A stretch of DNA of 64,000 nucleotides from Candidatus Pyrohabitans jungbluthii (lineage in GTDB: Archaea; Hydrothermarchaeota; Hydrothermarchaeia; Hydrothermarchaeales; BMS3B). This document shows positions 1 through 47,477 of this stretch, in pieces. The notes beneath the pieces were generated by a model. That model was not told the origin of the DNA, ran no database searches, and saw only the letters and a program-made list of their open reading frames with translations. The stretch is from positions 448,001 through 512,000 of the forward strand of contig MTMD02000002.1 of assembly GCA_002010065.2 (NCBI GenBank). Direction: 5' to 3'. The stretch's first letter is position 1. Each line of letters begins with the position of its first letter. Made by a program: the position numbers and the translations under genes.

Positions 1-1104
1 GTTCTTAATGCCTTTGCAGTCCTTGTCCGGGCGACAGAGCGATGGCGCCTCTCTGCGAATCTTCTCACAGTTGGGAACGAAGTACCAGGGGCTTTTTCCA
101 GAATCTTCTAGCTTAGGCTGCTCAGTGAAGCCGAAGCCTAAGTGATAGCAGATGTTGAGCTTCTCCTGGGGCTGGTCCTCAAAAAGTGGCGGGGAGCATC
201 GCTCCGCGGCTGCGTAGATTACCGGGAGAACCTCCTCTATTATTATGCTTATGTCGCTTATGAAGTCCGCTACCCTCGCGTTCTCACCTGCGTTGAAGGG
301 CGCTATCCGCGCGTAGGAGAGGAAAGATGTTAAGAGCACTGTGATGGCGTAGTTTCTTGAGCCACTTCCCACGCCTGCGAGCGTTGCCTTTATACATGGT
401 GGAAAATGCTCCTCCTTGAGCGACTTGCCCGCGTGCTTTACCAGCACCGGCATGGCTGAAAGAGCTGCGCTGCTCAACGCACTCGCGATCTCCTCCAGGC
501 GCTCATCCTTCGCTACGCTTCCCTCGAGGGAGCGCAGGAAGGCGTCGCATCTCTCAGCGATGCTCTCTGCATAGCACTCAATCGCCTGCCTCAGCGTGAG
601 CAGCGCATACCCCTGAGTAAGATAGAGCTGGGGAAGGCTCAACCTCCGACTTCGCAATACTGGCAAAAGCTCCCCCCAGGGCACAGCGTAGAGTAGGGGC
701 TCACCCTCGTGGGCTGTAAGGAGCCTTACATCACCTTCCTCCAGCTTTACCCCTGCCTGTGTGAGGGTGAGCAGCTCAAAGTCCTCTAGGAGATAAGCCA
801 GAGCCTCCGGGTTAAACCTGCTCGTGCCCCAGCCCTCGCGCTTTACCAGCGCCCACACGCGAGAAGCGATCTGCTTTTTAATAATCTCCTTCGCCGCCCT
901 CGCCTCCTTCGAGGCAAAGCCGCGGAGGGAAGCCGCACTCAGGAGGATGTAAAAGGAAAGCGCATCATCGCGGGGCTCTACATCAAGCCTAACCTCACCA
1001 GCGAGTTTTCTCTTAGCTTCTGTAAAGGCTTCCTTGGTGAACTTGCCCTCTTGAAAGTAGCGCAGCACACGCTTAGAGAAGGGGTTAACAATGGGGTGGA
1101 GCAT
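1..1104 (-). CDS. priL: DNA primase large subunit (runs off window start)
   Basis: Not in ORF track. Manual translation from ATG 1104 gives [12 protein letters not shown]...[37 protein letters not shown]...[24 protein letters not shown], the Fe-S cysteine pattern of Pyrococcus-type PriL; adjacent to PCNA. Confidence 0.93.
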
Positions 1105-1913: not shown

Positions 1914-2249
1914 TCAACTTTTAAGCTTCTCTACTGCATACTTCACCTGCTCATAGAGGGCTATGTCCAGTTTGCTCATGTCCTGAATTACTTCAACCTC
2001 AATCTCAACCGCCTCAGCTACGCGCACCCTTCCGAGAACCCTAACTCGCCTTCCCTCCACTGCTCGGGAGAATAGCTCGGGGTCGGCAAAGAGGAGAACC
2101 GCCCTGCCTGTGCCGTCATCGATAAGCGCTGTGCCGCTGGCTTCATCCTTATCTACGATGGTGCCAAGAACGCGCACACGAAACTCCTCACCAGTTATGT
2201 TCGCTATCTCCACCTCCTTTGCAGGAAACCTGCGCTTCTCCTGTGGCAT
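1914..2249 (-). CDS. OB-fold protein, RPA small subunit (RPA3/RPA14-like)
   Basis: RRFPAKEVEIANI...VRVLGTIV...LIDDGTG...VRVLGRV...EVEVIQD resembles Thermococcales RPA14. Confidence 0.75.
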   Translation of the reverse strand: MPQEKRRFPAKEVEIANITGEEFRVRVLGTIVDKDEASGTALIDDGTGRAVLLFADPELFSRAVEGRRVRVLGRVRVAEAVEIEVEVIQDMSKLDIALYEQVKYAVEKLKS

Positions 2250-2251
2250 GC

Positions 2252-2758
2252 CTACTCCCTCAGCTTAACGCTCTTAGCTCCCCTCGCCATTATCGTCTTA
2301 CCTGTGCGCGCAATCTCCTTTATCCCATAGCTCCGCATGAGCTCGATGAAGGCTCTTATCTTGTCCTCATCGCCGGTTATCTCCACCACCATGCTCTGCT
2401 TAGCCACGTCCACGATGCGCCCGCGGAATATGTTAGCGTACTGCACCACCTCAGCGCGCGCCGCCTCGTTCTTCACGCTTACCTTTATCAGTGCCAGCTC
2501 TCGAATAACACTCTCCCGCGGGTTCAGCTCGCTAACCTTCACGACCTCGATGAGCTTATTGAGCTGCTTCATCACCTGCTCAAGGGTAACTCTGTCGCCG
2601 CGTACTGTCATGGTAATTCGTGAGATGCCAGGAATTTCAGTCTCGCCCACGGAGATACTGTCTATGTTGAAGTTGCGCTTTCTCAGCAAACCAGAGACGC
2701 GTTGCATGACGCCGGGGCGATCCTCCACGAGGGCGACGATGTAGTGGGTATCCTCCAT
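2252..2758 (-). CDS. ilvH: Acetolactate synthase small (regulatory) subunit
   Basis: ACT domain VEDRPGVMQRVSGLLRKRNFNIDSISVG, EIARTG; follows ilvB. Confidence 0.96.
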   Translation of the reverse strand: MEDTHYIVALVEDRPGVMQRVSGLLRKRNFNIDSISVGETEIPGISRITMTVRGDRVTLEQVMKQLNKLIEVVKVSELNPRESVIRELALIKVSVKNEAARAEVVQYANIFRGRIVDVAKQSMVVEITGDEDKIRAFIELMRSYGIKEIARTGKTIMARGAKSVKLRE

Positions 2759-2767
2759 TCAGACCAC

Positions 2768-4444
2768 CTACTCAATAATGTCCTTAAGGCACCTGCCAGG
2801 CGGCACCATGGGGAAGATGTTGCACTCCCTGTCTATGATGAAGTCTATCACCGCCGGCTTGCCCGCATCGAAGGCTTCGCTGAGTGCGTCGCGTATCTCC
2901 CCCGGCTTCTCCACGCGTAAGCCCAGCGCTCCGAAGGCTTCTGCAACCTTAACGAAGTCCGGCGAGCTACCAAGGTTAACCGCGGAGTAGCGGCGGTCGT
3001 AGAATAGCTCCTGCCACTGGCGCACCATTCCCAAATAGCGGTTGTCAAAGACCGCAACCACCACGTTAATGTTATTCTCAACCACAGTTGCAAGCTCCTG
3101 AATGTTCATGAGAAAGCTCCCATCGCCAGCGATGTCTATCACCTTAGCCTCAGGCCTCGCCACCTTGGCGCCCATAGCCGCAGGAAAGCCGAATCCCATT
3201 GTGCCAAGTCCACCAGAGGATATAAAGGTGCGGGGCTTCGTCCTGCCAAGGTAGTGGTGCGCCCACATCTGGCACTGCCCAACTTCGGTGGTGACGATAT
3301 CCTCTTCACCTAAGAAGTCCATTATCTCCTTTATAACGCGGTGCGGCTTCAGCGGGATGTCGTCGTAGTCCATGCGCGGATTGAACTCCTTCTTCCAGCG
3401 CTGAACTTTTTCCACCCAGGCTTTTGTTTTAGCCTGCCTCATCATCTCCCTGAGCACGCGAAGAAGCTGGCGAAGAACGCGCTTAGCATCTCCGACTACA
3501 GGAATGTCTGCGCGAACATTCTTACCTATCTCCGCTGGGTCTATGTCTATGTGGATTATCTTCGCTTCGGGGGCGAAGCAGCTCACCATGCCCGTGCTTC
3601 TGTCGCTGAATCTCGTGCCAATGGCGATGAGCAGGTCAGCATCGGTAACCGCATAGTTTGCAGCCTTGCGCCCGTGCATTCCTAGCACACCAAGAGCGAG
3701 GGGGTGCGACTCGGGAAAGCTGCCCTTGCCCATGAGCGTCGTAACCACAGGCGCCATGATTAGCTCTGCCAGCTCCATAAGCTCTGGCGAAGCACCTGAG
3801 ATTATCACACCCCCGCCAGCGAGTATAACGGGACGCTCCGCCTCGAGTATCGCCTTTGCAGCGGCTTTTATCTGCCTTGGATGCCCCTCGTAGGTGGGCT
3901 TATAGCCCACGATCTCAACCTTATCAGGGAACTCAACCTCGGCTTCACCTTCCTGCATGTCCTTGGGGAGGTCTATGAGCACAGGACCAGGTCTGCCCGT
4001 CTGCGCGATGTGGAATGCCCTTTTTATAACCTCAGGTATCTCCGCTACGCTGCGAATCTGGAAGTTGTGCTTGGTTATTGGCATAGTTATGCCTATAACG
4101 TCTGTCTCCTGAAAGGCGTCCTTGCCTATGAAGGGCGTCGCAACTTGGCCTGTGAAGGCTACCACTGGCGATGAGTCCATGTAGGCTGTGGCGATTCCCG
4201 TGGTAAGGTTTGTTGCTCCCGGTCCTGAGGTGGCGCTGCACACACCCGCTTTGCCCTGGACTCGGGCGTAGCCATCGGCAGCATGCGCTGCCCCCTGCTC
4301 ATGGCGCGTGAGTATGTGCCTTATGTTGGCGTCATAGAGTTCGTCGTAGAGCGGAATCGACGCGCCGCCAGGAATACCAAAGATAACCTCAACGCCTTCT
4401 CTTTCCAGAGCCTTGACTATCGCCTCAGCACCCTTCATCCTCAT
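2768..4444 (-). CDS. ilvB: Acetolactate synthase large subunit
   Basis: IFGIPGG, RHEQGAAHAADGYAR, GDGSFLMN..E TPP motif, GMVRQWQ; start may be 4453, 4444 or 4438. Confidence 0.97.
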   Translation of the reverse strand: MRMKGAEAIVKALEREGVEVIFGIPGGASIPLYDELYDANIRHILTRHEQGAAHAADGYARVQGKAGVCSATSGPGATNLTTGIATAYMDSSPVVAFTGQVATPFIGKDAFQETDVIGITMPITKHNFQIRSVAEIPEVIKRAFHIAQTGRPGPVLIDLPKDMQEGEAEVEFPDKVEIVGYKPTYEGHPRQIKAAAKAILEAERPVILAGGGVIISGASPELMELAELIMAPVVTTLMGKGSFPESHPLALGVLGMHGRKAANYAVTDADLLIAIGTRFSDRSTGMVSCFAPEAKIIHIDIDPAEIGKNVRADIPVVGDAKRVLRQLLRVLREMMRQAKTKAWVEKVQRWKKEFNPRMDYDDIPLKPHRVIKEIMDFLGEEDIVTTEVGQCQMWAHHYLGRTKPRTFISSGGLGTMGFGFPAAMGAKVARPEAKVIDIAGDGSFLMNIQELATVVENNINVVVAVFDNRYLGMVRQWQELFYDRRYSAVNLGSSPDFVKVAEAFGALGLRVEKPGEIRDALSEAFDAGKPAVIDFIIDRECNIFPMVPPGRCLKDIIE

Positions 4445-8544: not shown

Positions 8545-9363
8545 TCAGCCCAGTTCTCCCGTTCTCTGCTTAATGAAGAACACAACCAAGGCAATTACAA
8601 TCACACCAGCTATGACAAGGAGATACTTTTTGAGGCTGGACTTCTTCTCCGCCGCCTGCGCCTTCTCTTTCGCCTCCTTTATTATATCCTCAAGCAGGGC
8701 GAGGGAACTCTCGGCATTCTGCTTTGCCAGATCCACATTACCCCTGTCGTGGAGCTTCTTAGCGGTGTTTAGGGTATCCTTCGCGGTTTCAAGGCGTTTT
8801 TTGAGGCTTTCCACATCCACTCCGCGCTTCTCAAGCTCGTTAACCAGTTCCTCAGCTTCGCTCAGCTTAACCTCTGCCCTGCTTATCTCGCTGAGCGCAG
8901 CACTTATCAATTCGTTGGTCACGTCCAAGTAAAGGGAAGTCTCCTCCTGGTAACCCTTGTTGTCCTCGTCATAGTAAACATACGTGGAGACCTTGACAAC
9001 CTGTATGCGGGTGAGCTTGCTAACAGATGGAGCGTTGCCCACAAGCTTTATTGACACGCTCTTAAGCCCCTTGGGTAGAGGAATTTCAATCTCATTGCCA
9101 TAGTAGGTGTTAGCCTCGCCTCCGTCGAAGATTACGGTGGTGGTGGGGTTGTCCAGCCCTATGGTTATATTCAGCCTTGCCTCCTGAGGCTCGGGCCCAA
9201 GCTTCTTCAGCACCACATCAACTGCAACAGGGTCGCCAATCCTCGCAACCCCAACGGGTGAAACCTTCTGTTCCTCCACTGCCAGGTAGTCGGCAGATAT
9301 CTCAGCAGCTAAGGTAATACCAACGGCAACAATCATGGCAACTACAATAGGTAGAGCTTTCAT
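8545..9363 (-). CDS. Type-I membrane protein (signal peptide, beta-rich domain, coiled coil, C-terminal TM helix)
   Basis: Hydrophobic N-terminus MKALPIVVAMIVAVGITLA, E/K/A-rich heptads, TM YLLVIAGVIVIALVVFFI, tail KQRTGELG. Confidence 0.8.
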   Translation of the reverse strand: MKALPIVVAMIVAVGITLAAEISADYLAVEEQKVSPVGVARIGDPVAVDVVLKKLGPEPQEARLNITIGLDNPTTTVIFDGGEANTYYGNEIEIPLPKGLKSVSIKLVGNAPSVSKLTRIQVVKVSTYVYYDEDNKGYQEETSLYLDVTNELISAALSEISRAEVKLSEAEELVNELEKRGVDVESLKKRLETAKDTLNTAKKLHDRGNVDLAKQNAESSLALLEDIIKEAKEKAQAAEKKSSLKKYLLVIAGVIVIALVVFFIKQRTGELG

Positions 9364-9378
9364 ACATCTTTCCTCCTG

Positions 9379-10395
9379 TTACAGAGGGCTTATGTCCTCA
9401 AGAAGGTCCTCCAACTCAGGAGAAAGCCTTTTCTCCTCCTTCTCCTCCTTGACCTCATAGCTCCTGATTATATCATCTACACCAGTAATTATCATCCCAA
9501 TATTTAAATGTTTAGACCCAAAAACCTCATGAGAGGAAAAGCTCACCTCAGCCCCAAGCTTGTTCTTAACCCACTCCACAGCGAAGCCCTCGCCGTATAC
9601 GTTGCGAACATCTCCATTTATAAGCAGGAGTATCTTCTCAGGCTTTACATCCTCAAGGTTTATGTAGATGTGGTCTCGCAGCATCCTGCTTATTATATCC
9701 TTTGCCGAGATGTGCTCAGCTTTTATCCGCATAAATCCAATCGTCGCCTTCTTGCCCTCGACCTCCTTCGCCACGAGCACGGGGTCGGCGATGCTCATGA
9801 AGTTGGTTATCGTCGCGGTTATGGTTGCGTGGCTCCTACCTAGGTCTTCGCCGCGCGATGTCAGCACATTGTTGTCCAGAAAAAGCGCACCATCAACCTT
9901 GCTCACGACCTCATGGAAATACTTGCCAACATTTTTGATGTAGTGCAGCCCCTCGCCGCGAGAAGGCAGAAGAAAGATGCCAACCACAGGTACGCGATAA
10001 TACTTCCTAAGTCGCTCTGCAATCACAGGCGCACCGCCAGTGCCGGTGCCTCCTCCTAAGCCGGCAATAACAAAGAACACCTCTGGCTTCTCTGTGTTCG
10101 CCTTCCTCACAGCGTTCATCGCAAGCTCTATCTCCTCCTCCATTATCTTCCGCCCAAGCTCGACATCAGCACCCGTGCCGTGTCCCTTAGCTCTGCTCCT
10201 CCCTATTAGCACGCGGTTTTCCACAGGCAGGTGCTTTAGTGCGGAGATCGCCTCGGAGGTGTCGATGCCAACGCCTCTGAGCTCTTCCTGCTTGGAAGGA
10301 GCAAGAAGGCTGAAAAGGCTGGAGAGAGGGTCTTTTTTGTAGAAAGCATCAACTATCCTGCAGCCAGCTCCGCCTACGCCAACTAGGGAGAACAT
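9379..10395 (-). CDS. Divergent tubulin/FtsZ-family (CetZ-like) protein lacking a recognisable T7 loop
   Basis: LVGVGGAGCRIVD, GHGTGAD, GLGGGTGTGG, LDNN. Confidence 0.85.
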   Translation of the reverse strand: MFSLVGVGGAGCRIVDAFYKKDPLSSLFSLLAPSKQEELRGVGIDTSEAISALKHLPVENRVLIGRSRAKGHGTGADVELGRKIMEEEIELAMNAVRKANTEKPEVFFVIAGLGGGTGTGGAPVIAERLRKYYRVPVVGIFLLPSRGEGLHYIKNVGKYFHEVVSKVDGALFLDNNVLTSRGEDLGRSHATITATITNFMSIADPVLVAKEVEGKKATIGFMRIKAEHISAKDIISRMLRDHIYINLEDVKPEKILLLINGDVRNVYGEGFAVEWVKNKLGAEVSFSSHEVFGSKHLNIGMIITGVDDIIRSYEVKEEKEEKRLSPELEDLLEDISPL

Positions 10396-10404
10396 CCACC
10401 CACC

Positions 10405-11550
10405 TTACAGGCCCTCAATATCTCCGAGAAGGTAGTCCAGGTCTCTCTCTTTCTGAGGCTCAGCCTCCGCGGTTACCTTCTTCTGAATCTCCCTGGCGCG
10501 CTCAAGCATGCGCTTCACTCGCGGAGCGTTGGTTATGCCGGCAAGAAGCACCACGCAGCCGACGTGGTTCTCCTTGGGCAGCGGATAATCGCCGCCTCTC
10601 ACTTCAGTGCCTGCGATGGTGCTCTCCAACCACTCTCTAGCCTTCTCTATACCCTTGCGGTCAAGCTGGTCCGGCGGCCCTGCGATAACAATAAGAGCCT
10701 TGCTGGCAGAGCGATAGTCGCAGGGTAAAAGCAGCCTTCCCTTAACGGCGCGCTTTGTAACAGAGAGGATGCGCGACGCCTTGCCTATCTCATACTCCTT
10801 CTTCTTGAAGAGCTTTGTCAGGAAGCCTTCCTTCTTAACTGCCTCCGAGGCGTAGCCTATGCTGCATATCCCGCCTGCCTTAAGAGTGTTTATAATCTCA
10901 CTCGCATCGACCACCATCTCGCCCACATGCTTGCGGTTCTTCACCTCACCCGCTCTGCAGAGAATGCCAAGGCGCTTTACTATCTCGTCGTTTATCCTGT
11001 CGTACGCCTGGCGAACACTCTCGCCGCTGCGCAGGAAAGCACCATTGTCTACCAAGATGGTCGCGTCTGCATGAGGAATCAGTGCTTTAAGGCTACGGGC
11101 GGCATTGAGGGTGTAGATATCGCCCTCATTCTCCGCGGGTAGTATTCCTATCGCATAAACAGGCTCGTCGTACACCTCCTTAAGGTGCCTGGTTACAACG
11201 CTTATGCTCCCGCTTCCTGTGCCACCTCCCAAGCCTGCTACGACGAAGAAGGCGTCAAAGGCGCTGACATTCAGCCTTGATATACGGTTGAGGATTATCT
11301 CTATCTCATCCTCGGCTATTCTCGCCGCCTTCTTATTATCTGCACCCACACCATGCCCCTTAACAACCGTCTCACCCAGAAGTATGCGGTCTTCCTGAGG
11401 TATGTATTGCAAACCCATGAGGTCAGAAACCGCCGTATTCACGGCTATTGCTTCAAAGGTGTGGGGTACGTGACTTTTTCTATCTCTCATTATGAATAAA
11501 TCAGCTATTTTACCTCCAGCCTGTCCTAAGCCGATTACCATCACTCTCAT
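10405..11550 (-). CDS. cetZ: Tubulin-like protein CetZ
   Basis: IGLGQAGGKIAD, AVNTA..DL, VKGHGVGADN, GLGGGTGSG, MVVDASEIINTL, EVRGGDYP. Confidence 0.92.
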   Translation of the reverse strand: MRVMVIGLGQAGGKIADLFIMRDRKSHVPHTFEAIAVNTAVSDLMGLQYIPQEDRILLGETVVKGHGVGADNKKAARIAEDEIEIILNRISRLNVSAFDAFFVVAGLGGGTGSGSISVVTRHLKEVYDEPVYAIGILPAENEGDIYTLNAARSLKALIPHADATILVDNGAFLRSGESVRQAYDRINDEIVKRLGILCRAGEVKNRKHVGEMVVDASEIINTLKAGGICSIGYASEAVKKEGFLTKLFKKKEYEIGKASRILSVTKRAVKGRLLLPCDYRSASKALIVIAGPPDQLDRKGIEKAREWLESTIAGTEVRGGDYPLPKENHVGCVVLLAGITNAPRVKRMLERAREIQKKVTAEAEPQKERDLDYLLGDIEGL

Positions 11551-11669
11551 CTGCTCTGCCTCCAGCTCTTCCGTTTAGAGTGTACTTTTTCCCCTTATAT
11601 ATATCTTACCTTGGAGTAACTTTTACTTACGAATAACACCTTTAGAATAACTTCCTCACTCGAACCTGA

Positions 11670-11750
11670 ATGTGATTTTGGCTGTCAAATTTTTATGCAA
11701 AACATTCGGGTATCATTAATTTGTGAAAAAAATACCGCACAAAATCACAT
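11670..11750. repeat. 11-bp perfect inverted repeat at the island's downstream boundary
   Basis: atgtgattttg (11670-11680) ... caaaatcacat (11740-11750). Confidence 0.6.
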
Positions 11751-11753
11751 GTT

Positions 11754-12410
11754 TTACGGCCAAACATTCCTTCCAAACTTGGGATGGTCAGGATTGTATT
11801 TTAAAAATGTTGTTCCACCAAAAGTTTTTGTTATAATGAAAACAGGCGGATCTTTATTTAGATTTTTTCTGAAAAAATTTGTAGGCTTTTTTAAAGATCG
11901 ATTTCCCTCCCAGAAATAGGCACCTTTTGTTATATCTGTTGGATTAAACAATGCTCTAACTGTAGCCTCAAGATCAGATAACATATATTTATTATCAAAC
12001 CAGTTTTTTAGAGGTAGATTGTTAGCTTCTCTGTATCTAGCTGAATCTCGTCCATATATTGCATGTCCTCCAATACCTCCCTCCTTATGCGAACGCCAGA
12101 AATTAGGGCTCGAATAGTCTATGCCCTTATATTCAGCCCTATTTCTGATAACGCGAGCGATACCCTCACTCTCCTTGGGGTTATGACTTGATTCGCTATA
12201 CACCGTTGCTGCAATATCGCGAAGCACCGGTTCATCAAAAATGCGTAAAACACGAAAACCTGCAATATAAGAGGGGGTGCGATTTTTAACTGCTTCTACA
12301 ACCACTTCTTGCACAAGACAACAATCTAAATTCTCAAGAATAAATACCCTGTTATCTCCATCATCGTAATAACCAGAAAATGTCCCATCATCGCTGAAGA
12401 TGTATGTCAT
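11754..12410 (-). CDS. SleB/CwlJ (Hydrolase_2)-like cell-wall hydrolase, putative toxin
   Basis: DIAATVYSES...ESEGIARVIRNR, DITKGAYFWEG and KTFGGTTFLK parallel the SleB motifs LARxIYxEA..G..AVaxVILNR, DPTxGALYF and xIGxHxF; AT-rich; no signal peptide. Confidence 0.62.
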   Translation of the reverse strand: MTYIFSDDGTFSGYYDDGDNRVFILENLDCCLVQEVVVEAVKNRTPSYIAGFRVLRIFDEPVLRDIAATVYSESSHNPKESEGIARVIRNRAEYKGIDYSSPNFWRSHKEGGIGGHAIYGRDSARYREANNLPLKNWFDNKYMLSDLEATVRALFNPTDITKGAYFWEGNRSLKKPTNFFRKNLNKDPPVFIITKTFGGTTFLKYNPDHPKFGRNVWP

Positions 12411-12770
12411 TTATTCGTCACCCTCCTCAAAAACCCTCATTTCCACCGGCGAAAATCGGATTTTCATATAACTAATGTGATGTGGTTCGAGGTCTTTCAG
12501 CGAATCTGGCGAGATTCTAATCTTGATGTCTGATATTTCACCCTCACGTGTTTTTTTAACCTCAGGTGGTCCTGCAACGGCGAATCGCAGCTCCACCTCC
12601 ACGTCGGAGATGGTAAAAGCTGGAATAGAAAATGAGGACAGGGCTTTCTGGCTTTTATACGTATCTACCAGCCTAGCGCTCTCCAAATCTCCCAAGAACT
12701 TCGCTTGTCTCAGTGCTTGCAGTATACCTCCCACCACCGTCTTTAGGCTGACCTCCGCCTGCTCTGTCAT
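12411..12770 (-). CDS. Small DUF2589-associated/related hypothetical protein
   Basis: N-terminal helix LKTVVGGILQALRQAK followed by IPAFTISDVEVELRFAV, echoing the layout of the DUF2589 neighbours; likely start ATG 12770 (track start 12815). Confidence 0.65.
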   Translation of the reverse strand: MTEQAEVSLKTVVGGILQALRQAKFLGDLESARLVDTYKSQKALSSFSIPAFTISDVEVELRFAVAGPPEVKKTREGEISDIKIRISPDSLKDLEPHHISYMKIRFSPVEMRVFEEGDE

Positions 12771-12787
12771 TAATATCCACCCCAAAC

Positions 12788-12823
12788 GGTTAAAATGGGG
12801 GATGGAGTCCCCCACTATTAACC
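12788..12823 (-). promoter_or_regulatory. Intergenic stem-loop within the DUF2589 operon
   Basis: ggttaa-aa-tggggga-tggag-tccccca-cta-ttaacc. Confidence 0.6.
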
Positions 12824-12827
12824 ACGG

Positions 12828-13475
12828 TCAGCCGCCTCCGGAGCCACCGCTACCGCCGGCGGGAACAGTTATCTTCTCTCCCTCGGAAAGGGGTACCACC
12901 TTCATCGCATCGCTGAGCATATCCAGAACCCTTGCAAGACCTTCAGGTATCTCATCCTGCACAGCATTTACTGTAATCTTCAATGTACTCCTCCTGTCGG
13001 TTTCCCTCTTGTTCGCACTCCGGTAGGTGAAAGAGCCCTTGAGCTGTACCTTGTAGAACCAGCCCCCCGCCTTTGCATTTGTGCTTATGTTCGTCTCAGT
13101 TGTGGATTCTGATGTTTCCACATCCCTTATTTGATATTCAAAGTCTATTGTCATGTCGTTGATTCGAATGAACGGTATGGGTACTATGCTCAGGAGCGGA
13201 ACCGTAAGTTTCGAAGGCACCACCTTGTGCACAGTTTCCTCTCCTTCCCTCTCCTCAATCACCCGGTCGAATTTGAACTCCACGTATCTAGCCTCGTACC
13301 CCGTTTTGTCATCTGTGGCGGTCCAGCTGGAGTCCTCCTTGAGACCCACCTCCTTTATGAAATCCACTGTGGTCTTTGCCGCCAGTGCCTGCGCCTTAAT
13401 AGCCGCCACAAGTGGCGACCCAATTACATGCTCCAATGGAAGAGCTCTCAACTCTGCCGGTATATTTGCCATCAT
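12828..13475 (-). CDS. DUF2589-family protein
   Basis: LPLEHVIGSPLVAAIKAQALAAKTTVDFIKEVG...LTVPLLSIVPIPFIRINDMTIDF...PEGLARVLDML. Confidence 0.8.
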   Translation of the reverse strand: MMANIPAELRALPLEHVIGSPLVAAIKAQALAAKTTVDFIKEVGLKEDSSWTATDDKTGYEARYVEFKFDRVIEEREGEETVHKVVPSKLTVPLLSIVPIPFIRINDMTIDFEYQIRDVETSESTTETNISTNAKAGGWFYKVQLKGSFTYRSANKRETDRRSTLKITVNAVQDEIPEGLARVLDMLSDAMKVVPLSEGEKITVPAGGSGGSGGG

Positions 13476-13484
13476 CTCACCTCC

Positions 13485-14246
13485 TTATTTTTCTCCCTCA
13501 GCGAGGAGCTTTGCCTTTTTTCTCCATCCGAGAATGCGTCTTTCCGAAACGCCAACAGTCTTCGCCAGCTCTTTAACACCTTCATTTGTCTTGGTTGCAG
13601 AAATCAGGTCCATAACGGTGGCAATTCCCTTTTTCTTGAGGAGGTCCGCTGTCTCGGCTCCAATACCACGTATTTTCTCCACAGGAAGAGAGCTTTCAGC
13701 TTGCTTCTTCTGTGCCCCTGTACTGGCTGATGGGGTCTTACCGCTCAGTAAGTCGACAAGAACATCCCCAAGTCTCGCCATTCCCTCAGGAACATCTCTG
13801 GTGATTTTCATCTTTACCCTTATTGTGGTTGGGTTGGATTTCCCCAGGGGAGAGAACAGTGCCAGGGTTGGTGCAAGAGAGGCACCCTTTAATGCCGATG
13901 ATATGACCGACGATTTTATAGGTTCTGTCCTCGGCTCCACTATTTCAACCCCAAACTCCACGTCCATCTCCTGAAGCTGCATTACCGGAGGAGGTACCAG
14001 TGCAAGCAGTGGTATGCTCAGCTCCAGAGGTTTTTCTTTGATCTCTGTTTTGGACTCACCAGTTTCAGGGTCAATTTTTCTCTCCTCTACTATCCTTTCG
14101 GCTCTCAGGCTGAAGGTTCTGGCGGAACCTTTCTCCATGCCAAACTCTTCAATGAAGGAGATTGTCTCCTGAAGGGCAAGATTCTGCGCCCTTATTGCAG
14201 CTTGGAGAGGCAGAGCGAAAAGCTGACCTAACTGGAGGAGTTTCAC
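13485..14246 (-). CDS. DUF2589-family protein with C-terminal helix-hairpin-helix (DUF4332-like) domain
   Basis: PLQAAIRAQ..., LSIPLLALVPPP..LQEMDVEFGVEI, PEGMARL; C-terminal VEKIRGIGAETADLLKKKGIATVMDL...GVSERRILGW. Confidence 0.78.
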   Translation of the reverse strand: MKLLQLGQLFALPLQAAIRAQNLALQETISFIEEFGMEKGSARTFSLRAERIVEERKIDPETGESKTEIKEKPLELSIPLLALVPPPVMQLQEMDVEFGVEIVEPRTEPIKSSVISSALKGASLAPTLALFSPLGKSNPTTIRVKMKITRDVPEGMARLGDVLVDLLSGKTPSASTGAQKKQAESSLPVEKIRGIGAETADLLKKKGIATVMDLISATKTNEGVKELAKTVGVSERRILGWRKKAKLLAEGEK

Positions 14247-14328
14247 GAAATACCCCCTGCATAACCCCCTATTTCATGGTACTATTATTTAAAATTAACG
14301 CAATGTGAGCCGTTGGCAGATTATGATG

Positions 14329-14874
14329 CTATTTTAATCTGACCTCACGCAGCATGGAATACACAGCCCCTTTCGGCGTGAGGATGCTCTTCATCAGTTT
14401 CACCTCACTGGCGAGAACTTCACCAAGCTCATCCTGTGCATGCTCGGCAATAAAGCGGGCTATCTTGTTCCTCTCCTGCATGCTCTTCACTCTCGCCAGG
14501 GTGATGTGGGGCACAAAGGCGCGTTTCTCCGGCGGAAACCCTAGCCTGAGCAGTTCCCTTTCAAGCTTTCCCTGAAGCTCTATTAGCGCGTCCTTACCCT
14601 CGGTTATCCCTGCCCATATTACGCGTGCGCTCCTCGCGCTGGGAAAGGCACCCACGCCCCTAATCGAGAATTTAAAGCTGCTGCAATCCTCAAAGGCGCG
14701 CTTCATGGCGGAGTGCACCTCTTCTACCTGCGCTTCTTCGATTTCCCCCAGAAACTTGAGGGTTATGTGCAGACTCTCTGGGGATACAGGCTTCACGCCT
14801 CTGATGCTGGATAGCTCCTCAAGCAGCTTCGGAAGCGCACTCGTATGTGCATCCACGGCGATGAAGGTGCGCAT
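14329..14874 (-). CDS. thpR: RNA 2',3'-cyclic phosphodiesterase (2H family, LigT/ThpR)
   Basis: MRTFIAV, two HxT motifs (LHITLKFLG, PHITLARV). Confidence 0.93.
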   Translation of the reverse strand: MRTFIAVDAHTSALPKLLEELSSIRGVKPVSPESLHITLKFLGEIEEAQVEEVHSAMKRAFEDCSSFKFSIRGVGAFPSARSARVIWAGITEGKDALIELQGKLERELLRLGFPPEKRAFVPHITLARVKSMQERNKIARFIAEHAQDELGEVLASEVKLMKSILTPKGAVYSMLREVRLK

Positions 14875-15733: not shown

Positions 15734-16690
15734 ATGGAGTGGCTCAGGCAGGTGGAGGAGTTTAGAAAGTATGCGGAAGACAGGCTCCTCAGAGGGGAAT
15801 ACTACGAGTTGGAGAAGGTGGAAACGCCGCTGAAGCATGCGCTGCCCCCGCACATGGAGGTGCGCCTCCTGGAGATACCGGGCATCTACCGCGTGGCAGA
15901 GCGCTATGAGCCAGCCACCGGGCTGAGGTACTTTATGGATGGGGTGCAGCGCACTGTGCTGTGGCGCTATTACGATTACCACTCTGCGAAAGTGCCCCTC
16001 TTTCTGCATCTTTCGGGTGCTGTGGTGCTGGAGCGGGTTAAGCCGGGTGTTTTTGTACCCGTAGAGCAGGGGTATCACAGTGCCATACTTGTGCCGGAGT
16101 TCATCTACGAGGAGTTCGCTGACCTCGAGGGCGTGGTTTCCATCGGGGAGGTAGAGCCCTGGGATATTGCCGAAATAGCCTCACTGGCAAAGGTTAAGTC
16201 AAAGGCGCTTCGTCAGGCGCTTGAGCTTGAGGTGATGCACCGCTTCCTTGAGCGCGAGGAGGAGTATTTACTGGTGAAGGACGGCAATATCATTGACACG
16301 GGCAGGCACAACGTCGTGGGCGTGGTGAAGACCCATACTACGCTATACCTTCAACACATAAACCCTTCGCTTCAGCGCTTAGTGTGGAATATGCCCCTAT
16401 ACCACAGAAGCGCCATCTTTTCTTTACGCTTAAGCGACGGCTCCCGCGTGGAGAGCTTCTACCTAAGGATACATGAGCCCCTTGCCCCTGAGACGGGCTT
16501 GATACGCGTGGAGCATCGCCTCGCCGACTGCGAAGAGCTTGCGGCTTGGCTTATAGCTGAGAGCAGGGTTTATTCACGTGGTGAGCGCTGGCACAATATG
16601 CTCTATCCGATACAGCGCTGCGAGGACTACCTGCGCACACAGCTTCCAAGCTCAAAGAAGCTAAAGGCGCTGCTGGGGGTTGTGGCATGA
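15734..16690 (+). CDS. NurA-like nuclease (bacterial-type)
   Basis: YFMDGVQRT, LLVKDGNI, VVGVVKTH, FYLRI, RWHNMLYPIQRCEDYL; ATGA overlap with the herA-like gene. Confidence 0.75.
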   Translation: MEWLRQVEEFRKYAEDRLLRGEYYELEKVETPLKHALPPHMEVRLLEIPGIYRVAERYEPATGLRYFMDGVQRTVLWRYYDYHSAKVPLFLHLSGAVVLERVKPGVFVPVEQGYHSAILVPEFIYEEFADLEGVVSIGEVEPWDIAEIASLAKVKSKALRQALELEVMHRFLEREEEYLLVKDGNIIDTGRHNVVGVVKTHTTLYLQHINPSLQRLVWNMPLYHRSAIFSLRLSDGSRVESFYLRIHEPLAPETGLIRVEHRLADCEELAAWLIAESRVYSRGERWHNMLYPIQRCEDYLRTQLPSSKKLKALLGVVA

Positions 16691-18282
16691 GCGCTCTAGG
16701 CTATGCAATAGGCACGCGCTCCTCGCCGAATACAGCGAACGAGTTTTACTTCTGGATACCGCCTGAAGAGGCGAGCCTGCAGATAGGTTCTATAGTTAAA
16801 GTGGAGAGCCCTGAGAACAGTGTAATAGGCGTAGTAGAGGAGATGAAGAGCTACGTGGATGTGGACGACTTCCTCACGCATGCGTTACCTCGTGGTAATG
16901 ACCCTCTGCTTACCCCGGCCAACAAAGAGCAGAGCATCCTCGTGTGCAAAGCGCGGGTGCTGAAGCAGCAGGTGGAGCGCCCGATTAAGGAAGGCGTTGT
17001 GTACTACCCAACGCGTGAAGAGCTGGAAGAGGTGTTCAACGTCGAGGGTTGCAATCTTCCCTTCGGCGTATTTGTGAACACCGACGCTACGATGCTCCCG
17101 GTTAAGGTGCACGAGGAGTACGTGCTGGGCTACGAGGGGGCGCACGTGAATATCTCCGGAATGAGTGGCTTAGCCACGAAAACCTCAACATTTCTCTTCC
17201 TTCTCGCCTCAATCTTCACCCACGCAAAGAGCAGAGTCGCGTGCGTAATATTCAACAACAAGAGTGACGATTTGTTGTACATAGACCAGCCTTCAACAGA
17301 GCTGACCGAAGAGGACATGTTAATATACGAAGAGTGCGGCATCTCACCTCGGGGCTTTAACGCCCGCTTCTTTGCCCCTAGCAACTTCTACGGCAGACCC
17401 CATTCCTTAAAAGAAGATGCAGAGGTGTTCAGGTGGGGGTGGCAGGAGATAGTGGAGTACATCCCCTCACTGCTCAAGGCTGCCACGCAGGACCAGAAGG
17501 AAAAGCTGGACAACGCCTTCTATGAGCTCAAGCGCATGTCCGTAGAGCATGGTATTGACTCCCTCGCTGAACTTCTGGAGTTCATGCGCCGCGAACTTCT
17601 GCGCGAGGATAAGGGCTGGGCGGAGCTCATCCGCGGTACCTACAAAGCTACGTGGGGGAAGCTGTACAACCAGCTCCGTGGGCTGGAGACAAAGTACGAC
17701 GGGCTCATAACCAGCTACGCCGACGAAGTTGTGGACATACCCTTCAACGATATATCCGACCGTGAGGTGTGGGTGATAGACATCCAGCAGCTTGGCTTCT
17801 ACCCGCGCAAGCTGGTGTTTGAGCGCGTAATAGACGAGTTCCTCTCCCGCTTAGAGCGCCGCTCCCTGAAGGTTGACAAACTTATAATTTTCATGGACGA
17901 GCTGAACAAGTACGCCCCCACCAATGCAAGCACAGAGGTGGCATCGCTAAAGGAGAAGCTCATCGAAATCGCTGCCCGCGGTAGAAGCGTTGGAATCTCC
18001 CTCTTCGGCGCTGAGCAGTTTAAGTCAAAAATAGACCAGAACATCCTAGGCAACATATCCACAGACATCTACGGAAAAACCAAGGATGCGGAGCTTGCGG
18101 AGCCGCTGTACAAAAACTTATCCGACGAGGTGAAGGGGAGGATAAGAAGGTTCTCCCGTGGCGAGAAGCTGCTTGATCATGAGCTTTTCGAGACACCGGT
18201 TTTTATACGTGTCCCCCGCCCGCCATGTATGCTGGGCAGTGAGAGGTCCAAGCTAAAGGCGATGCAGAAGAACATAGCCTAG
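16687..18282 (+). CDS. HerA-like ATPase (HAS barrel + DUF87/FtsK-HerA domain)
   Basis: N-terminal beta barrel, variant Walker A HVNISGMSGLATKTS, Walker B IIFMDELNKYAP, RGRSVGISLFGAEQ. Confidence 0.88.
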   Translation: MSALGYAIGTRSSPNTANEFYFWIPPEEASLQIGSIVKVESPENSVIGVVEEMKSYVDVDDFLTHALPRGNDPLLTPANKEQSILVCKARVLKQQVERPIKEGVVYYPTREELEEVFNVEGCNLPFGVFVNTDATMLPVKVHEEYVLGYEGAHVNISGMSGLATKTSTFLFLLASIFTHAKSRVACVIFNNKSDDLLYIDQPSTELTEEDMLIYEECGISPRGFNARFFAPSNFYGRPHSLKEDAEVFRWGWQEIVEYIPSLLKAATQDQKEKLDNAFYELKRMSVEHGIDSLAELLEFMRRELLREDKGWAELIRGTYKATWGKLYNQLRGLETKYDGLITSYADEVVDIPFNDISDREVWVIDIQQLGFYPRKLVFERVIDEFLSRLERRSLKVDKLIIFMDELNKYAPTNASTEVASLKEKLIEIAARGRSVGISLFGAEQFKSKIDQNILGNISTDIYGKTKDAELAEPLYKNLSDEVKGRIRRFSRGEKLLDHELFETPVFIRVPRPPCMLGSERSKLKAMQKNIA

Positions 18283-47366: not shown

Positions 47367-47477
47367 GCCGGGGTAACTCAGCCTGGTTAGAGTGCCACGC
47401 TCATAGGGAGAGGCTCCGCCTCACGTGGGCACTCCTGGGATACGTGGAAGTCGCGGGTTCGAAGCCCGCCCCCGGCA
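47367..47477 (+). tRNA. tRNA-Met(CAT) with 36-nt intron (47406-47441)
   Basis: GCCGGGG acceptor, CCACG/CGTGG anticodon stem, TTCGAAG T-loop; canonical BHB (CTCA/TGGG helix, GGAG/CTCC). Confidence 0.95.

Follow-up and report, generated by a model that had tools for sequence, protein, structure and literature searches.

Here, we describe a four-gene cassette of the archaeon Candidatus Pyrohabitans jungbluthii that lies in a 64,000-nucleotide (nt) stretch of its genome (GenBank assembly GCA_002010065.2, contig MTMD02000002.1, positions 448,001 to 512,000 of the forward strand; the whole stretch is called the window below). Its genes, A to D, encode two proteins of the family DUF2589, a small third protein and a fourth protein with a predicted wall-hydrolase fold of the SleB type. 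The first three genes, the core trio, recur in archaea and many bacteria, and the position after them is often filled by a peptidoglycan-degrading enzyme whose type varies from locus to locus. Our preferred reading, which is tentative and falls a little short of an even chance, is a lytic cassette of pore and wall hydrolase that is used here against bacteria. A, B and C, each with an N-terminal helix and alternating amphipathic beta-strands, would assemble into oligomeric beta-barrels that perforate membranes, as the protein Pepco does. The fourth position would be an exchangeable slot for leaderless peptidoglycan-degrading enzymes, held here by a recently acquired, divergent SleB-type hydrolase. 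The pore module would breach the membrane of the producer, and possibly that of the target, letting an enzyme without a signal reach murein. In effect, the cassette would be an anti-bacterial weapon in which release of the enzyme depends on the trio.

A core trio and a variable enzyme slot

We surveyed DUF2589 loci from three sources: a pattern scan with the B alignment (80 metagenome loci, among the matches listed), three plasmid loci and the loci of relatives. Six near-duplicate loci were dropped and only loci with DNA past the core were kept, which left 43 assessable loci. A C-family gene is present in 39 of these, and the core takes three forms: A-B-C as in the window, B-B-C, and B-C-B with a long C. 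In 20 of the 43 loci, the gene that comes first downstream in the same direction encodes a peptidoglycan enzyme or binder, and in 14 of the 17 loci of the A-B-C type the slot holds a wall enzyme. Among other open reading frames (ORFs) of at least 100 amino acids (aa) from the same loci, only 1 of 150 is peptidoglycan-related (150 of 161 scanned), and chance adjacency of wall enzymes is rejected by this comparison. An earlier, sequence-only reading of the window had proposed a survey for a variable toxin or hydrolase slot beside DUF2589 genes, and its outcome is positive.

Among these 20 loci, the slot is most often filled by an NlpC/P60-like family, here called E (nine loci, 295-383 aa), followed by CHAP proteins (four loci, L027 only via homology to L028) and SleB-like proteins (three loci: the window, L003 and L043). 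Single loci carry Peptidase_M23 (6.8e-31), YkuD, a weak M15_4 match, or two PASTA domains with DUF4332. Two further loci have a wall enzyme further downstream, namely Polysacc_deac_1 and Muramidase PF11860 (1.9e-66), and one E locus carries a GH46 gene second. The other 21 loci divide into 12 with an unannotated slot gene, two with a housekeeping-looking one and seven without a co-directional gene. Hydropathy shows neither a hydrophobic leader at the N-terminus nor a transmembrane segment in any slot enzyme, and BLASTP found no N-terminal domain common to slot enzymes of different type. Stop and start codons of C and the enzyme gene overlap or abut in seven loci, consistent with translational coupling. 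Neither protease or sensor genes that could arm C nor ATPase, sheath, spike or membrane-anchor genes were seen among the downstream or control ORFs, and the flanking genes of the surveyed loci are mostly housekeeping.

Judged from its sequence, E is plausibly an NlpC/P60-like peptidase: C119 and H161 are invariant, and a profile of nine sequences matches Spr/MepS with E values of 1.8e-4 and 3.4e-4 over the Cys-His stretch.

Some surveyed loci have conflict-type neighbours, comprising PycTM-like and RHS-repeat genes (L042, 8313-8873 and 10154-12691), a CAP12/Pycsar TIR gene, patatin-like phospholipases and a phage-type integrase (the further loci being L089, 815-1741; L036, 3111-4973; L047, 1477-3207; and L027, 3499-4194). 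In five B-B-C loci (L047, L048, L054, L062 and L064) the slot protein begins with long low-complexity stretches rich in Pro, Ala and Ser and has no signal peptide. In another five loci, which are related to each other (L076, L077, L078, L080 and L083), a conserved ORF of 121-138 aa without a family, possibly a regulator, lies divergently 101 nt upstream of the B-B-C core.

Among 61 genomes, DUF2589 was found in seven, the window's included; five of ten genomes of the same family and one genome elsewhere among the archaea carry it. The DUF2589 genes stand in adjacent pairs wherever the contig allows, and a C homologue comes next in all six relatives. D was found only in the window's genome and in G008, and E only in G002-G004, always beside the trio. 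The congener G002 has the same site between the LigT-like and CetZ genes with E in the slot instead of D, and in G003 and G004 A-B-C-E lies at other genomic sites. The slot has been swapped within one genus, and the cassette is mobile. L003 (276-924) appears to be the same locus as G008:C32, to go by matching coordinates; the A gene of this genome and the beginning of its B gene are found at the end of another contig, L020.

Beyond these genomes, a search returned 453 homologues of B, which is 64-68% identical to proteins of Calditrichaeota, Desulfotomaculum and Nostocaceae and 53-57% identical to proteins of Streptomyces and Bacteroidota. A scan of IMG/VR with the DUF2589 alignment found no relative, and a phage collection yielded one unannotated 4-kb record named 'Bacteriophage sp.'. 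Plasmid matches to DUF2589 are mostly unannotated or 'hypothetical'.

Predicted folds of the four proteins

The D family is rare, with 15 clusters among 5.8 billion sequences, of which one is named, a Hodarchaeota metagenome-assembled genome. An AlphaFold2 model of D built from this 15-cluster alignment has a predicted local distance difference test score (pLDDT) of 94.5 and has two parts, a small beta domain peculiar to D at the N-terminus (residues 1-55) and a divergent SleB/CwlJ-type domain (55-204). An exhaustive VIA fold search with the model placed the SleB structures 4fet_A (Z 11.3, root-mean-square deviation 2.7, 118 of 122 residues) and 4f55_A (Z 10.9) far ahead of the next fold, MltG, at a Z of only 4.1. 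In a Foldseek search of the PDB, ranks 1-3 are all SleB catalytic-domain chains (prob 1.00, E 0.024-0.047) and the rest have E >2. In BFVD, SleB or Cell-wall-hydrolase is the name in 21 of the 31 named rows of the best 50 (19 unnamed), the best E value is 5.4e-4 and phage lysins dominate. On the strength of the model, residues 55-204 are a SleB/CwlJ-type wall-hydrolase domain. E73 is invariant in 15 D-family sequences and is 18 residues from the start of the aligned range 55..204 (133..253 of the chain), an offset that, going by the aligned ranges, presumably agrees with that of the catalytic Glu of SleB; it is a candidate catalytic residue in the model.

The SleB likeness proposed by the sequence-only reading stands as a fold but is invisible to sequence comparison. 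D has no relevant match in Pfam (E up to 10), NCBIfam, PHROGs, PADLOC or phmmer and profile searches of the PDB, and it misses the Hydrolase_2 model (PF07486, cut-off 27 bits). A D profile found 124 proteins among 1.84 billion representatives, of which 51, the longer ones plus a sample and hence a non-random draw, were scanned with Pfam. No family was found in 42 of these, and one (P0174) has a sub-threshold Hydrolase_2 match (21.4 bits, E 3.9e-4). In the remaining eight, the D-like domain forms the last ~150 residues of RHS repeat/core, DUF6443 or SpvB proteins of up to 2,939 aa (for example, 2767-2931 of 2,939 and 2414-2560 of 2,566). This extreme C-terminal placement is the position of a polymorphic-toxin tip.

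A and B are the only DUF2589 proteins in a whole-genome scan. A matches the Pfam model over residues 6-163 (60.3 bits, E 3.5e-16, gathering cut-off 23), and its tail (~186-248) matches DUF4332 (3.1e-08) and HHH_5 (2e-05) and is kept in 13 aligned archaeal and bacterial orthologues. B matches over residues 13-188 (115.4 bits, E 3.9e-33). It begins with a helix, continues with four conserved amphipathic beta-strands, among them those of a Ser/Thr-rich hairpin, and ends in an unstructured Pro/Gly/Ser tail. In an alignment of 32 sequences the hydrophobic and polar columns of B alternate strictly over ~100-172, with strands at ~103-119, 128-136, 140-149 and 163-172. The Ser+Thr fraction is 0.28 in residues 118-160 compared with 0.15 overall. 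A has a shorter stretch of small and hydrophobic residues at the hairpin position, and the contrast between the two proteins is as it had been noted from the letters. A profile search of the PDB with B returned chance-level rows alone. Predicted complexes of A(1-170) and C with B as partner scored 0.11 and 0.05 relative to a mark of 0.32, in runs without controls.

Longer forms of B of ~300 aa (P0090, P0112, P0117, P0118 and P0122, one of them named Streptomyces) carry an extra beta-rich C-terminal domain of ~100 aa with only weak TIG or Big_1-like matches. The HHH/DUF4332 module moves between genes: it is found on A in A-B-C loci, on C in L066 (7441-8088; HHH_3, 4.3e-05) and in the L045 slot (2108-3415), whose 435-aa coiled-coil product also bears two PASTA domains.

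Homologues of C carry PF27375.1. Against Trypco2 (PF19631, cut-off 24.2 bits), 5 of 52 family members match, one of them above the cut-off (L082, 43.6 bits, 3.6e-11) and four below it (L088 at 1.2e-3, L017 at 1.9e-3, L067 at 0.015 and L025 at 0.02); L017 is a congener orthologue 68% identical to the window's C. Three of the 52 match DUF2589, at best with 5e-4. Structural neighbours of the C model in the Atlas include a DUF2589 cluster (TM-score 0.77) and a Trypco2 cluster (0.57). Whole-genome scanning for Trypco2 gave nothing at E up to 10, a search of 101 related genomes found none, and a PDB profile search with C returned chance-level rows only. Together, the sequence matches and the model weakly suggest that the C family is distantly related to both Trypco2/Pepco and DUF2589. 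The DUF2589-like layout that the sequence-only reading saw in C is supported by family matches and by the Atlas neighbour, but faintly, and not by any match of the window's own C.

The cassette in its genome

The host genome is 99.95% complete and contains no penicillin-binding-protein transpeptidase, no SEDS protein (FtsW/RodA) and no Mur ligase by searches whose controls were positive in 10, 10 and 12 of 14 reference genomes, respectively. As murein genes are lacking, the host cell itself offers D no substrate, and for an archaeon without murein the only available substrate would be the bacterial wall. No immunity-like ORF follows D: the sole ORF in 11551-11753 is a 74-aa plus-strand frame overlapping the end of D. 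Both the missing immunity gene and the missing murein machinery had been anticipated.

Most of what had been read from the letters alone about the layout holds. The four genes are co-oriented and tightly packed on the minus strand (Table 1), the DUF2589 assignments of the 253-aa and 215-aa proteins agree with Pfam, and the stop codon TAA of C is directly abutted by the ATG of D. The TATA-like box is present 40-48 nt before the GTG of gene A (14246), inside the 82-nt gap between the LigT-like gene and gene A, and a GGGGG run lies 8 nt ahead of the gene A start. For gene C, the ATG at 12770 gives the shorter product, and a database form (P0016) has the same 119 aa. In a Kyte-Doolittle scan none of the four proteins has an N-terminal hydrophobic signal, as expected, and three have no transmembrane-like segment (maxima 1.02-1.34); the maximum of B, 1.68, falls in a Pro-rich conserved motif. 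The supposed AT-rich island is real but uneven. Gene D stands out most (GC 0.381; GC at third codon positions, GC3, 0.288) from flanking genes with GC3 of 0.60-0.69, whereas A, B and C are only mildly AT-richer (0.49-0.58), and 657-nt windows as AT-rich as gene D make up 0.95% of the 64 kb. Judged by this composition, D is a very recent arrival.

Table 1 Positions of the cassette genes and associated features in the window
Feature	Position	Strand	Size or composition	Description
Gene A	13485-14246	minus	253 aa, GTG start	DUF2589 with DUF4332/HHH_5 tail
Gene B	12828-13475	minus	215 aa	DUF2589
Gene C	12411-12770	minus	119 aa; with the GTG at 12815 as start, 134 aa	Small protein of the PF27375 family
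Gene D	11754-12410	minus	218 aa, no leader	SleB/CwlJ-type fold (predicted)
TATA-like TTTTAAATA	14286-14294 (read 14294-14286)	minus		Candidate archaeal promoter, read from the letters
AT-rich spacer 3' of D	11551-11753	minus	GC 0.355	T-run, then TATA-like box of CetZ gene
Candidate presence/absence unit	11627-14337		2,711 bp, whole cassette	Metagenome contigs joining both sides

A contig chimera is ruled out: an independent 69.9-kb contig covers 9400-15700 with 18 differences, and the congener G002 has the same flanks. These flanks are archaeal housekeeping genes, with two CetZ tubulins on one side and a LigT-like phosphoesterase, AIM24 and a HerA-type ATPase on the other. By Pfam scan, the window contains no trypsin-like or cysteine protease gene that could arm C, and a check of the cassette ends found neither terminal nor flanking repeats.

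Contigs that join position 11626 to position 14338, with five other letters between, occur in two metagenome runs that come from two studies. The depths of these cassette-less contigs are 951 and 1017, compared with 471 and 265 for cassette-bearing contigs (~2-4 times). This is a hint of sibling strains without the cassette, with a shorter side of 30 letters and the likeness set to 90. In runs X5 and X6, high-depth contigs are ~90-95% alike over the CetZ (10463-11037) and LigT (14447-14868) flanks, which suggests that the cassette-bearing strain lives alongside a more abundant sibling.

Several further genes of the window are of separate note. The CetZ/tubulin-family genes lie in tandem at 9379-11550 on the minus strand (381 and 338 aa), and the congener locus L015 has a third CetZ-like stretch further on (tblastn 29% over 217 aa). 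Beside the pair, at 8545-9363 on the minus strand, is a 272-aa protein without a family that is hydrophobic at its N-terminus, resembles a coiled coil in the middle and ends in a hydrophobic anchor, and that is kept beside the CetZ pair in G002 (81% identity). On the plus strand, at 15734-18282 and ~1.5 kb from the cassette, a 318-aa protein without a family overlaps by 4 nt with the 531-aa HerA-type ATPase, which weakly matches a HAS-barrel and, in PADLOC, matches mad8 (7.2e-12) and HerA (1e-05); judged from these matches, the two may be a NurA/HerA-like or defence-related pair. A tRNA match at 47367-47477 on the plus strand spans 111 nt for a 71-position model, and an intron is probable.

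Competing explanations and known systems

What favours a pore and wall hydrolase turned against bacteria is that the slot has been refilled within one archaeal genus, that E keeps its catalytic residues, that its ratio of nonsynonymous to synonymous substitution (dN/dS) is low, and that D has relatives on Rhs toxins. Several observations weigh against it. The dN/dS of E is 0.075-0.21 among three archaeal congeners, similar to A, B and C, but dS is saturated and divergence within the archaea is assumed, yet the cassettes of G003 and G004 sit at other sites. In G008, a genome of the same family, a frameshift or stop breaks the D copy near residue 160, which may be decay or an assembly error. D in the window is by composition a very recent, foreign arrival and may not yet be under selection in this host. 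The best match of the E family to Pfam NlpC/P60 (PF00877) is 20.2 bits (L044) against a cut-off of 23, and L017 reaches an E value of 0.15. The AlphaFold2 monomer of B is poor (pLDDT 57, and 31-37 across the strand region), and a fold search with this low-confidence model gave helical proteins with a best Z of 5.2. The window's C matches no Pfam family at E up to 10, neither Trypco2 nor DUF2589, and hhalign relates the C family to DUF2589 with 10% probability over 31 columns that share a P-x-F-x-I-x-D...F motif. No PADLOC-DB 2.0.0 defence model matches A, B, C or D at E up to 0.1, and PHROGs has no match for B, C or D. The survey used our own crude ORF calling, classified with hidden Markov models, on an 80-locus pattern-scan sample. 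In seven of its 43 loci, the archaeal G047 locus among them, nothing co-directional lies downstream of the core, which shows that the trio need not have an enzyme beside it.

The main rival, which we hold to be rather unlikely, is a bacterial self-lysis or abortive-infection cassette, in which the trio would act as a death effector that, in the manner of Pepco, lies latent, and the enzyme, like an endolysin, would complete lysis of the producer. In archaea the cassette would then have been transferred; the trio may still kill its host, and the hydrolase would be a passenger without a substrate. Pepco itself is such an effector, the slot enzyme types mirror the range of phage endolysins with none bearing a leader, and some loci stand beside the conflict-type genes listed above. 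No consistent immunity gene was seen in the bacterial loci, which fits self-lysis better than a secreted weapon, and the foreign composition of D, its break in G008 and the archaeal loci without any enzyme point the same way. However, the operons have no sensor or activating protease, and PADLOC does not recognize them. E retains its invariant Cys and His at low dN/dS across the three congeners, and refilling of the slot with a different wall enzyme inside one archaeal genus is hard to explain if the enzyme is useless. D-type domains are tips of Rhs toxins, that is, they are aimed at other cells, and DUF2589-related genes of Archaeoglobus fulgidus are reported to be up-regulated during ordinary growth on lactate (PMC3949148).

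The strict model of the sequence-only reading, in which the hydrolase is physically loaded into a DUF2589 ring or tube that works as a nanomachine and passes it into a bacterium, now looks improbable. The close tie between the trio, itself strictly linked, and a variable effector slot, the abutting or overlapping codons of C and the enzyme gene, and the D-type domains of Rhs toxins all agree with it. Yet no oligomer or contact with the effector emerged, slot enzymes of different fold share no N-terminal domain detectable by BLASTP through which they could be loaded, and the trio is not accompanied by ATPase, sheath, spike or membrane-anchor genes. C does not co-vary with the enzyme type either: the window's C is 49% identical to C of the D-type locus L003 and 65-68% identical to C of the E-type congeners. 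The missing loading domain and the missing co-variation argue against physical carrying and for non-specific release. The looser idea of a ring, tube or pore fits the possible link of the C family to Trypco2/Pepco.

We also give little credence to a role outside conflict, in which the trio would be a structural or stress-related assembly of the envelope or membrane, the enzymes would remodel the wall of a bacterial host, and archaea would keep the function of the trio. The trio does stand alone in several archaeal and other loci, its neighbours are mostly housekeeping genes, and the A. fulgidus genes are reported to be expressed in normal growth (PMC3949148), but the slot enzymes lack a signal for export, the carriers are scattered and prone to transfer, B being 64-68% identical across distant phyla, the slot is swapped and there is the hint of presence and absence, and D is tied to Rhs toxins. 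Least probable of all, and by our estimate very much so, is that the slot enzymes are activating peptidases that trim a DUF2589 tail, such as the Gly/Ser end of B, to arm the pore: Pepco is armed by an adjacent protease's removal of its tail, peptidase-type folds are found in 16 of the 20 first-slot genes and B ends in an unstructured Pro/Gly/Ser tail, but D has the glycan-cleaving SleB-type fold, the muramidase, GH46, polysaccharide deacetylase and PASTA proteins of other loci are not peptidases, and the sole substrate common to all slot enzymes is peptidoglycan.

Of the known systems, Rhs/YD polymorphic toxins and wall-degrading effectors of the type VI secretion system resemble the cassette in their D-type domains, which form the last ~150 residues of RHS-repeat proteins, and in the swapping of an effector at one site. 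In contrast, the cassette has no Rhs, PAAR, VgrG, type VI secretion or immunity genes, and its effector is a free-standing protein of 218 aa. By BLASTP, the shared N-terminal trafficking domain that defines polymorphic toxins is missing from the slot enzymes, and no ORF follows D.

Holin-endolysin lysis, and the holin/endolysin-based 'type 10' secretion, combine a membrane breach with a leaderless hydrolase of freely varying type. The trio, as a putative membrane-breaching module beside a leaderless hydrolase, would be comparable, and the enzyme types agree (muramidase, transglycosylase, CHAP, NlpC/P60, M23 and M15, with SleB-type domains being common in phage lysins). The differences are that A, B and C have no transmembrane helix by hydropathy, and that there is no phage context here, with housekeeping flanks, no match in PHROGs or IMG/VR and an archaeal host without murein. 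With the spore-cortex enzymes SleB/CwlJ (Hydrolase_2; 4FET and 4F55), D shares the predicted fold of residues 55-204. It differs in having no Pfam match, signal peptide or peptidoglycan-binding N-domain and in having its own 55-residue beta domain; it is not found in a spore-former or beside ypeB or gerQ, and its relatives tip Rhs proteins.

Trypco2 is one of two domains now named Pepco, which a recent preprint describes as a 117-aa protein that has a basal amphipathic helix and assembles into 9-10-mer beta-barrels, resistant to SDS and hydrophobic on the outside (Evans et al., bioRxiv 10.1101/2025.11.14.688446). According to the same preprint, Pepco permeabilises membranes once an adjacent Ser or Cys protease removes its unstructured C-terminal tail, and it acts as a death effector in abortive infection. 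Like Trypco2/Pepco (see also PMC7159879), C is small (~117-130 aa), starts with an amphipathic helix that is followed by beta-strands and an unstructured tail, and is a modular partner of an adjacent enzyme gene. Unlike it, C has neither a trypsin- or caspase-type protease nor a STAND sensor nearby, is always accompanied by two larger DUF2589 paralogues, and is paired with a wall-degrading enzyme instead of a protease with a sensor. For Pepco the oligomer and pore have been demonstrated, whereas C is known here from sequence and models alone.

A search of the full-text literature found no paper that assigns DUF2589 a function, nothing under PF11655 or PF27375, and nothing in print on an association of DUF2589 with wall enzymes. 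Mentions of DUF2589 are incidental, comprising the up-regulation of AF0414-AF0417 on lactate in A. fulgidus (PMC3949148) and one table row for B. fragilis. The survey ties this widespread family without a function to beta-barrel pore toxins and to interchangeable wall-cutting enzymes. If the pairing is true, a compact two-part lytic module found in both domains is added to microbial conflict.

The closest archaeal parallel is the set of bacteria-killing peptidoglycan hydrolases in Strock et al. 2025 (PMC12352652), where a known signal peptide is present in just 67 of 210 (32%) archaeal enzymes, which leaves the export route of the others open. The main text mentions neither SleB, NlpC nor DUF2589. 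The enzymes of that study were found via Pfam catalytic and binding architectures, an approach by which D would be missed; archaeal wall hydrolases can thus escape Pfam-based screens, since D matches no model and yet has a clear predicted SleB fold and relatives on Rhs toxins. We consider it possible but doubtful that DUF2589 and Trypco2-like proteins form a widespread, horizontally traded beta-barrel 'gate' for signal-less wall enzymes, serving in archaea as an anti-bacterial weapon with swappable warheads. Such a gate would be a third export solution beside Sec/Tat and contractile injection and the first function for a large DUF family, and it would account for how those archaeal peptidoglycan hydrolases that have no leader, the majority, get to their targets. 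The cassette shares with the enzymes of Strock et al. that an archaeon encodes a murein hydrolase useless on itself, and it offers a candidate answer to the question, raised in 2025, of how leaderless ones exit the cell and reach bacteria.

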